Shown here piece by piece: positions 27,346-62,600 of a stretch of DNA of 64,000 nucleotides. The stretch is from sequence record PZ256263.1; one strand, written 5' to 3'. Under the pieces are notes generated by a model, which saw only the letters and a program-made list of their open reading frames with translations, ran no database searches and was not told the origin of the DNA. The stretch comes from a phage. A program made the translations under genes and the position numbers. Every line of letters begins with the position of its first letter. The first letter of the stretch is position 1.

Positions 27346-27563
27346 TTTGGGTTCACACTTATAGAATTGGAAAGAAAGGGCTTACTACTATTCACACATC
27401 TGAAGATAGTGCTAAAGCATCTCAGGCTGTACTGAAAGGAAAGATCACACCTTATGTAGTCGCTGAAGAAAAGAAGAATCCTCCAGTTCTAGAATATCTA
27501 GGAACAGGTAAAGCTTATACAGCACTGGATGTTATTAACAATAAACAAGGAGATGTGGTATAA
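27342..27563 (+). CDS. hypothetical protein
   Basis: Track ORF 73 aa. Confidence 0.45.
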   Translation: MIWVHTYRIGKKGLTTIHTSEDSAKASQAVLKGKITPYVVAEEKKNPPVLEYLGTGKAYTALDVINNKQGDVV

Positions 27564-27564
27564 A

Positions 27565-27780
27565 ATGGAATACATTGATAAATATTCAAGTGAAGATTCA
27601 AAAGACGCTGATGTTTTATTCATATTGAAAACAGACTGTCTAGAACACGGACAGCTTATTAACTTTATGGAATTGGCAAAGCTTAAAGAAGAGATTGATC
27701 AACTGTACAGTGATGAGCAATCCAGATTACTTTCTCTGTCTCTACTAGGTGATCTAACTTGTGATGGATGTACAATTTAA
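27565..27780 (+). CDS. hypothetical protein
   Basis: Internal ATG of track ORF 27529 placed after the upstream stop; C-terminal CDGC. Confidence 0.4.
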   Translation: MEYIDKYSSEDSKDADVLFILKTDCLEHGQLINFMELAKLKEEIDQLYSDEQSRLLSLSLLGDLTCDGCTI

Positions 27781-27789
27781 GAGGTCTTT

Positions 27790-28293
27790 ATGGCTGAAGT
27801 TTATTTTGCAGGAGATGGTCACTTAGGCCATCGCAACATCTGTAGTTTTCGTAAGCAATTTAAAAACATCGAAGAACATGACAAAGCAATTCTGGCTGCT
27901 TTTGACCACGTAACCAAACGTGATAAAATCTTCTTTACTGGTGATTGGGTATTTGAAAAGTATGCCCTTGATATTATCTCTGAAGTGAAAGGAGAGAAGC
28001 ATCTGGTCTTAGGGAACCATGATAGGTTAGAACTTCTCCCTGATATGATGAAAGTCTTTCGTAGAATCTCTGGTGATTATAAGTATAAGGAGTTTTGGAT
28101 AACTCATATTCCTATTCACACTGATGAGATGAGAGGGAAGTTTAATATTTATGCTCATACACATAACCATGTAATTGATGATTGGAGGTATTTCTGTACA
28201 TCAATGGAGCAAATTAACTATAAAGCTGTTTCTCTGCAAGAGATTAGGAAGATTTTTGATGAAAGAAGAAAAGAACAAGATCTCATTATTTAA
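27790..28293 (+). CDS. metallophosphoesterase (calcineurin-like)
   Basis: Track ORF 167 aa; GDGHLGH ... FFTGDWV ... VLGNHD motif series. Confidence 0.65.
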   Translation: MAEVYFAGDGHLGHRNICSFRKQFKNIEEHDKAILAAFDHVTKRDKIFFTGDWVFEKYALDIISEVKGEKHLVLGNHDRLELLPDMMKVFRRISGDYKYKEFWITHIPIHTDEMRGKFNIYAHTHNHVIDDWRYFCTSMEQINYKAVSLQEIRKIFDERRKEQDLII

Positions 28294-28423
28294 AGAACCT
28301 GTAGTTTATAAAGACTCTATCAGAGATCAATATAATGAGATGTTAAAGAAACAAGCTGATTCTAATCTTCGTTATCAGAGGATAGTAGAACAATCTAACT
28401 TTAAAGGTTTACTTGAATGGTAA
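28175..28423 (+). CDS. hypothetical small protein (start uncertain, likely internal ATG near 28259)
   Basis: Track ORF 82 aa overlapping the phosphoesterase 3' end in another frame. Confidence 0.3.
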   Translation: MMIGGISVHQWSKLTIKLFLCKRLGRFLMKEEKNKISLFKEPVVYKDSIRDQYNEMLKKQADSNLRYQRIVEQSNFKGLLEW

Positions 28424-28524
28424 CTTATATCCTTTACTTCTTAGCTTTCTTAGGAATAGTCTTTTTATCTATTATTCTTGAATTTGGTTTAAGTAAGTTA
28501 GTTAATTATTTAGGTAGTAAGTAA
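28417..28524 (+). CDS. possible 35-aa hydrophobic peptide
   Basis: ATG overlapping upstream stop; MVTYILYFLAFLGIVFLSIILEFGLSK...; AT-rich context makes chance hydrophobic ORFs likely. Confidence 0.2.
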   Translation: MVTYILYFLAFLGIVFLSIILEFGLSKLVNYLGSK

Positions 28525-28542
28525 TTAATATTCTTTTAAATA

Positions 28543-28607
28543 GAGAATCAAAGTCCCTAGGAGTCCCCACAACCTAAATCAAGGATTCCTTAATTCTCTA
28601 TTTTTAT
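28543..28607. repeat. perfect 11-bp inverted repeat (aaatagagaat / attctctattt) flanking a 43-nt spacer
   Basis: Read directly; spacer contains the palindrome aaggattcctt and direct repeat agtccc; T-run follows on + strand. Confidence 0.6.
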
Positions 28608-28701
28608 CTCGCAGGTGGCTCCTGCCCTTCGGTACTTGCAAGGGATTCTATGAATTGCCCAATGTACAAGCCTGCAAGAGTTATTCTCTAACTCTACCTT
28701 A

Positions 28702-28710
28702 TATACATTA
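28702..28710 (-). promoter_or_regulatory. TAATGTATA motif on the minus strand, antisense orientation in a + strand noncoding region
   Basis: Plus strand reads tatacatta; no minus-strand ATG in the next 180 nt downstream. Confidence 0.35.
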
Positions 28711-28762
28711 CCGTTAGTGAGTATCTACTACCAATAAAATGATACTTATCTTACAAAAGTTA

Positions 28763-28771
28763 TAATGTATA
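28763..28771 (+). promoter_or_regulatory. TAATGTATA motif, candidate phage-sigma-dependent promoter for the SSB-like gene
   Basis: Exact motif about 46 nt upstream of AAGGA and the ATG at 28831. Confidence 0.5.
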
Positions 28772-28830
28772 TTATACATAACCGCTCAAAGAGAGCAACA
28801 ATCTATCAAATTAAATAAGGAAATTAAAAT

Positions 28831-29577
28831 ATGTCTATGATTCCAACTATCGCAACTTCTTCCCGTAAATCCAACTACGACATCATCCCTGATGGTGAGT
28901 ATGAAGCACGTATTGTTCGTGTAGTAGGTTTGGGTGTTCACAATCGTGACCCTTGGGTTGACCCGAAGACCAAAGCAGTAACTCCTAAGAATCCAGCTTT
29001 CCGTATGGATTTGGCTTTCGAGCTGATTGGTGTTGATGCTACTGGTAAAGATTCCGATGGTAAGGCATTAGAACCACGTCCTGCTTGCCAGTTCAAGAGT
29101 TATGATGTAAACCCACGAGCTAAGAACTCTGGTATTCTTGATCTCTGCAAGATGATTGACCCAAGCATTCAAGCACTGAAAGGTGATCTGTCTTGGTTTA
29201 AGGATGTGCTGTTAGGTCAGCCTGTTAACATTCTGGTTAACTCTTACACTAACAAAGCTGGTGAAGTTAAAAACTCCATCAAGACCATTTCTCCAATCCC
29301 AACCAAATATCGTGCAGCAGTTGGTGAAGCTCGTAGCCCTCTGGTATTCTTCGAACCGTATGCTGAAACCGATGAGAACGTAGCATCCTATCAACTGATG
29401 TTCCCGTTCCAGCGCAACCTGCTTACTCAAGCTAATGACGCTAAGAACATGCCTCTGGCTGGTCGTGAAATTACTCGTGCTTCTGAAACAGAGCAGAAAG
29501 AAGCTACCCCTTCAATCCCTACGATTGATAAAGAGCCTGCTTCTACTTACGAAGACGACAACGATAGCCCATTCTAA
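28831..29577 (+). CDS. single-stranded DNA-binding protein-like
   Basis: Track ORF 248 aa; acidic C-terminal tail ending YEDDNDSPF (terminal aromatic as in SSB/T7 gp2.5 tails); own promoter motif and terminator. Confidence 0.5.
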   Translation: MSMIPTIATSSRKSNYDIIPDGEYEARIVRVVGLGVHNRDPWVDPKTKAVTPKNPAFRMDLAFELIGVDATGKDSDGKALEPRPACQFKSYDVNPRAKNSGILDLCKMIDPSIQALKGDLSWFKDVLLGQPVNILVNSYTNKAGEVKNSIKTISPIPTKYRAAVGEARSPLVFFEPYAETDENVASYQLMFPFQRNLLTQANDAKNMPLAGREITRASETEQKEATPSIPTIDKEPASTYEDDNDSPF

Positions 29578-29598
29578 TAACTCTCCTTGTTATAGCTT

Positions 29599-29621
29599 AG
29601 CCACCTCCGGGTGGCTTTTTT
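29599..29621 (+). terminator. rho-independent terminator
   Basis: 7-bp stem agccacc/ggtggct with tccg loop followed by tttttt, 20 nt after SSB-like stop. Confidence 0.7.
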
Positions 29622-29634
29622 CGTTGGAGACAAC

Positions 29635-29985
29635 ATGCAAAACACATTAAGTGATAACTTAGGGTTTATCGTTTTCTCGGCTCTTGTATTCTTTGGTGGT
29701 ATGAAGTTTAACGAGTACCAAACAGACAGCAGTAATCTGGACAAAGAGAAGCACCAGCAAGAGTTAGAGATTGAAAGAAGTAGAGCAGCTGATGAAGTTG
29801 CTCAGAGGGTTCTTACCGGTTTATCTAACTGGAAGAAGAACACGGAAACCGTTTATAAAGAGATGCATTATGAGAAAACTAAACCAGTTTTTTATAATGT
29901 CTGCGCTAGTGATGAGTATGTCAGCTTGTTCAATGAGCGACAACAGCAGGCAATCAATGCCCTTACCAACAAACCTAAAAGCTGA
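29635..29985 (+). CDS. i-spanin-like (Rz-like) protein
   Basis: Internal ATG of track ORF 29611 with GGAGA upstream; N-terminal TM LGFIVFSALVFFGG then charged helical region. Confidence 0.5.
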   Translation: MQNTLSDNLGFIVFSALVFFGGMKFNEYQTDSSNLDKEKHQQELEIERSRAADEVAQRVLTGLSNWKKNTETVYKEMHYEKTKPVFYNVCASDEYVSLFNERQQQAINALTNKPKS

Positions 29986-30129
29986 ATGTAGGGTTGACCT
30001 GCCTCTTTTAGAAAGTGCTCAAGGAAAAGCACTAGCCACTACGTTGGAGTGGTATCAGGACCAGTACACAGAATGTGCTGCCAATCACAATGGATTGCTA
30101 GAAGCTCTGAAAGAGCGTGGAATAGAATA

Positions 30130-62575: not shown

Positions 62576-62600
62576 TTTATACTCCTTCTACATTATCAAC

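Follow-up and report, generated by a model that had tools for sequence, protein, structure and literature searches.

Is the gap upstream of gene 40 in phiEco32-like phages an empty spacer, or does it encode a product of its own? We examined this gap in a 64,000-nucleotide (nt) stretch of phage DNA (sequence record PZ256263.1; "the window" refers throughout to this whole stretch). The window is from a Kuravirus, a phiEco32-like podophage and coliphage, and the 2 kb around the locus were 95 to 97% identical to the Kuravirus genomes phiEco32, SU10, NJ01, 172-1, and SR02. A first-pass annotation, made from the letters alone, had described a 400-bp noncoding region here and offered a noncoding RNA or a replication origin as candidate explanations. 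The region is shorter than that: positions 28417 to 28524 are occupied by gene 41 (phi32_41, 35 amino acids [aa] long), and the true noncoding gap extends from 28525 to 28830 (306 nt), ending at gene 40 (phi32_40, 248 aa; gene numbers follow the annotation of the relatives). On balance, we lean towards the view that the gap holds an unannotated middle-phase noncoding RNA gene, which would be read on the minus strand from its own promoter for the phage sigma factor gp36, divergent from the known promoter P40.

A reverse-oriented gp36 promoter candidate

The gp36 consensus element, tAATGTAtA, lies at about -15 to -7, and transcription starts 6 to 8 nt downstream of it (PMC8948821). Six gp36 promoters have been published, upstream of genes 6, 13, 26, 40, 58, and 68 (PMC8948821 and its Table S3; PMC4331800; the SU10 paper), and we located all six in the window, at 62587(-), 55172(-), 38595(-), 28763(+), 21746(+), and 17265(+). 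The perfect 9-mer TAATGTATA was present in five copies in the 64 kb, compared to 0.69 expected, and none of 100 shuffles reached five; matches with one mismatch were at chance level across the window. Both copies reported by the first-pass annotation were found. The forward copy (28763 to 28771, plus strand), which had been said to drive a gene resembling that of a single-stranded DNA-binding protein (SSB), is the published P40. The reverse copy (28702 to 28710, minus strand) is the only perfect 9-mer in the window that is not a listed promoter. We propose this reverse site as a candidate for a seventh gp36 promoter, here named P40r, pointing backwards and lying back-to-back with P40. The elements of the two promoters are as follows.

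28722 to 28732, minus strand: -35-like box of P40r, GGTAGTAGATA (-37 to -27), identical to the box of the gp36 promoter P68 and at the same 11-nt distance
28702 to 28710, minus strand (read from 28710 to 28702): -10-like 9-mer of P40r, TAATGTATA (-15 to -7), a perfect match to tAATGTAtA
28695, minus strand: predicted +1 of P40r, an A, placed 7 nt past the 9-mer by the position of AATG in P68
28763 to 28771, plus strand: P40, known middle promoter and published gp36 promoter, TAATGTATA, with a predicted +1 near 28778; divergent from P40r

The cryo-electron microscopy structure of the P68 open complex, formed with gp36 holoenzyme and activated by gp79, places AATG at -14 to -11 (2025; PMC12276001). 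In P68, gp36 touches -37G through R187 and the T opposite -34A through Y186; transcription is abolished when these are mutated (PMC12276001). The P68 of phiEco32 itself is identical to the P68 of the window. Counting from the 9-mer, the GGTA of the P40r box falls at -37 to -34 and by sequence match covers the -37G and -34A contacts; thus, the two elements by which a validated promoter is recognized are both present in P40r, and the distance between them is the validated one. When all seven sites were aligned, P40r and P68 had 14 nt in common (ATTGGTAGTAGATA), followed by 11 nt and then by (T/A)AATGTATATA. The box GGTAGTAGATA was found in the 64 kb at P68 and P40r only, even with one mismatch allowed, and the combination of box and 9-mer was likewise confined to these two sites within the window.

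This architecture is conserved. We compared 41 loci, drawn from isolates of three genera (Kuravirus, Suseptimavirus, and Nieuwekanaalvirus) and from uncultured relatives (IMG/VR, metagenome, and Logan contigs), which yielded 23 promoter haplotypes. GGTAGT was kept in all 23 haplotypes, and the 9-mer was perfect in 20 of the 21 haplotypes of the Kuravirus type, with TAATGAATA in a more distant clade. The spacer between the two blocks was 11 nt long (10 nt in the distant clade) and had at least eight different sequences. When two blocks are held constant and the stretch separating them varies in sequence but not in length, a functional promoter is the classic interpretation.

No protein gene was found behind P40r. 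The first-pass annotation had noted that no minus-strand ATG occurs for about 180 nt past the reverse motif, a conservative figure, as the first one lies at 28286, about 415 nt away. A small protein gene within the gap was considered and rejected: it contains no open reading frame (ORF) of ≥30 aa (all are ≤22 aa), and the conserved core described below carries indels of 1 and 2 nt between lineages, so coding is excluded. A 15-codon ORF in one version of the element (the type B module, described below) was also rejected, with mostly nonsynonymous changes between MN05 and ECBP2 and no ribosome-binding site.

Comparison with the remaining gp36 promoters showed that the late promoters P26 and P13 (38604 to 38650 and 55181 to 55230, minus strand) have TAAGACCTA in common at -38 to -30 and that an A stands at -34 in all four of P26, P13, P68, and P40r. 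These sequences hint at two -35 subclasses of gp36 promoters, one late (TAAGACCTA) and one middle (GGTAGTAGATA at -37 to -27). A seventh, reverse gp36 site with a P68-type box would extend a promoter map that is now treated as six sites and would point to a promoter subclass defined by the GGTAGT box.

Structure and conservation of the predicted RNA

From its first base, the predicted RNA would consist of a 5'-terminal hairpin (H1), an invariant UUGCA, a variable middle module, and a core of ~95 nt that contains a small hairpin and a long one (H5).

28677 to 28695, minus strand: H1, 5'-terminal hairpin AGAGUU-AGAGAAU-AACUCU, 6 bp, with the predicted +1 as its first base
28633 to 28676, minus strand: variable middle module, of type A here, swapped for unrelated sequence elsewhere while its flanks stay fixed
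28535 to 28632, minus strand: invariant 3' core, 93 to 99% identical to the window in 16 phages
28611 to 28625, minus strand: small hairpin GCAGG-AGCCA-CCUGC within the core, with an invariant stem and a single variation (C/A), in the loop
28538 to 28603, minus strand: H5, long invariant hairpin of 66 nt, with an 11-bp inverted repeat (28538 to 28548 and 28593 to 28603) as its base
28601 to 28609, plus strand: T-run TTTTTATCT, directly after H5 and read as the linker AGAUAAAAA on the minus strand; invariant in all relatives

H1 was present at the predicted +1 in every lineage. Its eight sequence variants in the 41 loci, which include AGAGUU/AACUCU, AUAGCU/AGCUAU, AUAGUU/AACUAU, AUAGA/UCUAU, and ACAUC/GAUGU, all pair on the minus strand; identity to the H1 of the window was only 42 to 58% in most relatives, and pairing was nonetheless kept. 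Two-sided changes occurred at two of the six pairs, and one pair alternates between G-C and G.U. The two most common variants (20 loci) fold on the minus strand only (plus strand, 0 kcal/mol) because their G.U pair exists on that strand only. These patterns clearly point to RNA-level, strand-specific selection at H1, the one place in the element where this is so. The first-pass annotation had looked to covariance across related phages for a test of the structure; it revealed compensatory changes in H1, and the core proved too invariant for covariation.

The core is constrained at the level of nucleotides. In the diverged subset of the 16 phages, gene 40 was 62 to 71% identical to that of the window at third codon positions and 92 to 96% at second codon positions, and the core was more conserved than the latter. 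It was almost unchanged even in contigs whose gp40 is only 70 to 72% identical. Conservation ended sharply at the base of H5, and the sequence to the left of the core (its upstream flank) had 37 to 50% identity in many of the compared phages. Thus, purifying selection on the core exceeds the constraint on the neighboring gene, that of a probable SSB, across several genera and uncultured relatives, and no known RNA family matched. Strong nucleotide constraint without a family match is characteristic of a functional noncoding RNA, here one of a strictly lytic phage. To our knowledge, few functional noncoding RNAs have been characterized in strictly lytic phages.

The inverted repeat that first drew attention to the locus exists and is perfect over 11 bp, and it is conserved in related genomes, where it forms the base of the larger H5. 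The arms given by the first-pass annotation (28543 to 28553 and 28597 to 28607) were misplaced by about 5 nt; they read GAGAATCAAAG and TCTATTTTTAT and are not complementary. The spacer contains palindromes (CCTAGG and AAGGA-T-TCCTT), as had been claimed, and is 44 nt long instead of 43 nt, and the further stem candidates placed at 28610 to 28690 correspond to stems that we found within 28610 to 28695. A perfect 11-bp inverted repeat with a spacer of ≤60 nt arose in 72 of 5,000 mononucleotide shuffles of the region (1.4%); alone it is mildly unusual, and its conservation makes it significant. On the minus strand, the H5 stem comprises 15 to 16 continuous pairs, among them two invariant G.U pairs whose plus-strand counterparts are A.C mismatches.

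The middle module occurred in at least four unrelated versions of 30 to 75 nt, flanked by invariant UUGCA and UGCRA. Type B was found in ECBP2, MN05, and EcM-vB1 and types C and D in metagenomic relatives. The versions (28633 to 28676 in the window; L010, L015, L055, and L062) were shuffled independently of H1 type, as in MN05, which combines the H1 of the window with an ECBP2-type module; such shuffling points to a recombination hot spot between fixed flanks.

Folding favored the minus strand in several respects. The consensus fold reached -38.9 kcal/mol on the minus strand (structure conservation index, 0.87) compared to -29.2 kcal/mol on the plus strand (0.77), and the minimum free energy of single sequences was better on the minus strand by about 3.5 to 10.5 kcal/mol in 8 of 8 phages. 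One-sided changes also fit minus-strand wobble pairing: in XT18, an A-U pair becomes G.U, and in L060 and L062, a U.G pair becomes U-A in the UUGCA/UGCRA helix. This closing helix (UUGCA/UGCGA in the window) competes with the small core hairpin. Overall, we find good support for the minus-strand RNA at its 5' end; for the core, constraint may act on both strands, and this would help explain its invariance.

We infer transcription, the exact RNA ends, stability, and function from sequence and picture them as follows. In the middle phase of infection, Escherichia coli core RNA polymerase with gp36, helped by gp79 as at P68, would bind GGTAGTAGATA-N11-TAATGTATA on the minus strand and start at A28695, so that the transcript would open with H1 at its very first base. 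A 5' hairpin of this kind typically shields an RNA from 5'-end-dependent decay. The phage-variable middle module would follow, and then the invariant 3' domain of ~95 nt with its small hairpin, A-rich linker, and long hairpin. Because conservation ends at the base of H5, the mature RNA is probably ~160 nt long (28695 to about 28535), with a 3' end that H5 might set by blocking exonucleases or by weak termination. The invariant 3' domain is probably the working part of the RNA and would bind a conserved protein or RNA partner, from either the phage or E. coli; an RNA that acted only by antisense pairing in cis would have no need of sequence invariance.

It is a speculative possibility, with a small but real chance of being right, that the 3' domain represents a new kind of phage effector RNA that binds and neutralizes or redirects a conserved factor of E. 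coli, for example a ribonuclease, a defense protein, or a regulator that binds RNA, or else the RNA part of an RNA-primed origin of this phage group; in either case, phiEco32-like phages would have their first defined functional noncoding RNA. phiEco32 is a model of how a phage takes over host transcription by means of its own sigma factor, gp36, and the regulator gp79, and Kuraviruses are components of therapeutic cocktails and chassis for engineering. Genome design would therefore be affected if a spacer annotated as empty contained an RNA that is essential or directed at the host.

Distribution of the element and its genomic surroundings

A covariance model of the element detected a single copy in the window (28529 to 28695, minus strand; 204 bits), the next match having an E value of 0.35, and the element is single copy in each genome. 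The model also detected it in the contigs with a gp40 of 70 to 72% identity. Upstream of the gene 40 homologue, the element was missing from 7-11, Privateer, GAP52, and LAh_9, which have gaps of 50 to 100 nt there, and from three uncultured relatives, L057, L058, and L064 (gp40, 64 to 69% identical). In two of these three, a gene for DNA polymerase A is located about 1.5 kb upstream. More generally, the sister lineages and Grimontviridae that lack the element still have a gene 40 homologue, with DNA polymerase or exonuclease genes nearby in the loci examined. From this pattern of presence and absence, the element belongs to one clade, centered on Gordonclarkvirinae.

Wider searches returned few copies. 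A scan of IMG/VR gave five near-identical copies only, a pattern scan of metagenomes gave seven true copies and 12 chance matches, and a scan of GTDB genomes gave two chance matches only. Rfam 15 had nothing at gathering thresholds in the window, and the only matches in 28300 to 28900 were two at chance level (E = 1.9 and 3); ARAGORN called no tRNA or transfer-messenger RNA genes. Several candidate functions were tried and rejected. Host mimicry had no basis in 5,426 E. coli genomes, which contained no similarity. A role as a sponge for CsrA would rely on four GGA motifs in the core, compared to about two expected by a rough estimate, which is not significant. The prophage small RNA svsR, described in a paper that mentions Kuraviruses, is unrelated to the element. 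A search for trans-antisense targets in the phage gave two 12-mers only, which is chance level.

The genes around the locus include several of anti-defense flavor (a macro domain and a phosphoesterase). Past gene 40 lie genes for an Rz-like spanin, a macro-domain protein, and the phage sigma factor gp36.

28831 to 29577, plus strand: gene 40, OB-fold (oligonucleotide/oligosaccharide-binding fold) protein and probable SSB; context for the element

The product of gene 40 is probably a phage SSB, judging from its predicted structure. The AlphaFold2 model, with a mean predicted local distance difference test score (pLDDT) of 81 from an alignment of 28 sequences (a single-sequence run gave an unusable pLDDT of 37), has an OB fold closest to the plasmid SSB-like protein PrgE and baculovirus LEF-3. 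Its acidic C terminus ends in an invariant PF, like the tips of bacterial SSBs. The protein matched no Pfam family, and the PHROG families that it matched are all of unknown function. The gene 41 peptide (28417 to 28524; MVTYILYFLAFLGIVFLSIILEFGLSKLVNYLGSK) is very hydrophobic and probably a small membrane protein, and lineages differ in whether they have it. An HNH homing-endonuclease gene directly follows gene 40 in SU10 (L001, 3097 to 3510), L002, L057 (3282 to 3707), and L062 (2270 to 2692); the window is without it.

Further features were seen at and near P40. In the window, as in SR02 and MN05, P40 overlaps a sigma-70-like promoter, ATGATA-16-TATAAT (28739 to 28766, plus strand), whose TATAAT is formed by TTATAATGTATA; most relatives carry GCGTAATGTATA instead, without TATAAT. 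Just 3' of the P40 9-mer, at 28773 to 28784, is a reverse-oriented near-copy of the element, TTATGTATA, which makes TAATGTATATTATACATAA an imperfect palindrome, and in the same vicinity TATACATAACCG repeats TATACATTACCG of the reverse promoter (28702 to 28713). This near-copy has a T at the contacted -14 position and looks like an old duplication. The P40 leader (28779 to 28830; ACCGCTCAAAGAGAGCAACAATCT) is almost invariant across all relatives, with a GCUC/GAGC hairpin possible a few bases past the predicted start, and may be a second conserved RNA feature. Finally, an insertion of ~150 bp with a 47-aa ORF separates the divergent promoters in EcM-vB1 (L007, 734 to 877), L031, and L020, and both promoters are unaltered there.

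Alternative explanations and relation to known systems

Several observations weigh against a minus-strand RNA gene driven by P40r. The reverse site is absent from the published list of six gp36 promoters, and an earlier mention is possible in the primary mapping paper (Pavlova 2012). One metagenomic locus, L035 (ERZ1034915 NODE-75), has TAATATATA, which alters the contacted -11G and is either a sequencing error or a natural down-mutant. Relative to shuffles, folding is more exceptional on the plus strand (z = -3.7) than on the minus strand (z = -2.8). On the plus strand only, the type B module yields a stem of 13 bp that includes three G.U pairs and that the ECBP2 substitutions retain by wobble pairing, and in one folding model the substitutions in StefiG and L039 are wobble-compatible on the plus strand. 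The core is nearly invariant, so covariation supports H1 only; assigning a strand to the core by covariation was tried and abandoned, as the core hardly varies and the wobble evidence outside H1 is mixed. On the minus strand, no U-tract follows H5 (the sequence there is UUUAAAAGAAU, or UUAAAAUCAAAA in other lineages), so that a canonical terminator is lacking and the 3' end is left unexplained. Moreover, no complementary target of ≥13 nt was found within the 64-kb window.

Some of these points would suit a plus-strand cis element of the upstream mRNA, in which H5 and TTTTTATCT terminate, pause, or are cleaved in the manner of RNase III at the end of the operon of genes 58 to 41, insulating the P40-driven operon from gene 40 to the sigma gene and leaving P40r secondary or inactive. 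A boundary between transcription units is expected just upstream of P40, an invariant run of five Ts lies directly past H5, and in several lineages the stop codon of the gene upstream lies at or just before the start of H5; together, H5 and the T-run appear terminator-like for plus-strand transcripts from gene 41. The better plus-strand z-score and the type B stem, whose G.U pairs exist on that strand only, agree with this. However, the base of H5 is AU-rich and encloses 44 nt, in contrast to the short, G+C-rich stem and 3- to 8-nt loop of an intrinsic terminator; the consensus terminator scan of 27500 to 30000 called only 29599 to 29616 and was silent at H5; and neither the published SU10 terminator lists nor the WFI101126 annotation has a terminator at the locus. 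Given the T-run, weak or atypical termination is conceivable. Ninety-five invariant nucleotides are more than a terminator needs, and the minus-only pairing of H1 in 20 loci and the complete P68-type promoter at a fixed distance from H1 would be left unexplained. We consider this explanation unlikely; it is compatible with an RNA from P40r, and function on both strands may help explain the invariance. Alternatively, P40r RNA could pair in cis with read-through plus-strand transcripts, making double-stranded RNA for RNase III, or polymerases could collide, with less read-through into gene 40 and the sigma gene once gp36 has been made. P40r does oppose all neighboring genes, its promoter is of the middle class, like P68, and the LUZ19 promoter P001 offers a precedent (PMC10914365). 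Pairing in cis is perfect whatever the sequence, though, so neither the 93 to 99% identity of the core nor the abrupt loss of conservation at the base of H5 would be explained, and the upstream genes vary by lineage while the element does not. We regard interference of this kind as quite improbable.

The other proposal of the first-pass annotation, a replication origin, gained no specific support. Here P40r, and P40 divergently, would open the DNA or prime synthesis, and the core would hold sites for replication proteins. The oriF and oriG origins of T4 combine a middle promoter with an unwinding element and an R-loop primer, and the primary origin of T7 combines phi1.1A/B with an AT-rich region. 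Like them, the P40r locus has a phage-specific, middle-type promoter without a gene of its own, near replication genes and with AT-rich DNA nearby (23 to 25% GC on both sides of the element). The divergent promoters lie about 83 bp apart, the invariant core contains two AGTCCC repeats about one helical turn apart, the adjoining gene is that of the probable SSB, and no origin has been described for these phages in the literature searched. Unlike the T4 and T7 origins, the transcribed part of the P40r locus is structured, invariant, and relatively GC-rich: the first ~100 nt transcribed have 42 to 53% GC and are the least AT-rich part of the gap, DNA of 23 to 25% GC starts only from about 28560 down, and the AT-rich DNA begins about 160 nt downstream. 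Promoter-primed origins such as those of T7 and T4 are not known to need long invariant sequences. The best-resolved constraint, that on H1, is at the RNA level, tolerating G.U pairs and showing RNA-type covariation, and the element is missing in relatives that keep a gene 40 homologue (L057, L058, L064, 7-11, Privateer, GAP52, and LAh_9, all searched upstream of gene 40). GC skew does not turn at 28.6 kb; its only change of sign, at about 34 kb, coincides with the switch in gene orientation, although this is weak evidence, as skew follows transcription in such phages. An origin, or part of one, is thus distinctly unlikely. That the locus has no function at all, combining a chance inverted repeat with a chance promoter-like motif, or that it holds a short unannotated protein gene, is very improbable. 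The frequency of the repeat in shuffles (1.4%) and the chance-level count of one-mismatch 9-mers in the window would fit it. It is already contradicted by the compensatory changes in H1, the conservation of the promoter, the restriction of the box and 9-mer combination to P68 and P40r, and a core more conserved than the second codon positions of the neighboring gene in diverged phages; a protein gene is further opposed by the absence of any ORF of ≥30 aa and by the 1- and 2-nt indels in the core.

Returning to the noncoding RNA that we favor, its putative promoter is closest to P68. Both have the box GGTAGTAGATA at an 11-nt distance from (T/A)AATGTATA, followed by TA, with implied -37G and -34A contacts and an implied +1 at an A 7 nt past the 9-mer. 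P68 differs in being validated by experiment and in having the sense direction with a protein gene behind it, whereas P40r is a candidate from sequence that runs against all neighboring genes and has no ORF behind it. Support for a promoter of structured noncoding RNA on the minus strand, which the first-pass annotation had suggested from the reverse motif, comes from this P68-type -35 box at the same spacing, from the 41 loci, and from the covarying hairpin at the predicted +1.

The closest precedents are the phage-specific antisense promoters and antisense RNAs of Pseudomonas phages, of which 20 RNAs were mapped by ONT-cappable-seq; the LUZ19 antisense promoter P001 was proposed to block transcription into early genes (PMC10914365). 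Like the predicted P40r RNA, P001-type RNAs are noncoding and are made by the phage transcription machinery against the gene flow in the middle or late phase; most of them, however, are long transcripts overlapping coding genes (PMC10914365), and they are not known to be deeply conserved in sequence. The P40r RNA would differ from them in being intergenic and in having an invariant domain of ~95 nt and a covarying 5' hairpin. Lambda OOP RNA and T4 RNAs C and D are short, stable phage RNAs bounded by hairpins. The predicted P40r RNA has no sequence or Rfam similarity to these RNAs, no canonical 3' terminator, and, unlike OOP, no conserved overlapping target gene. It would nevertheless resemble all of them in being small, in having its own promoter and structure at both ends, and in lying in a gap between genes.

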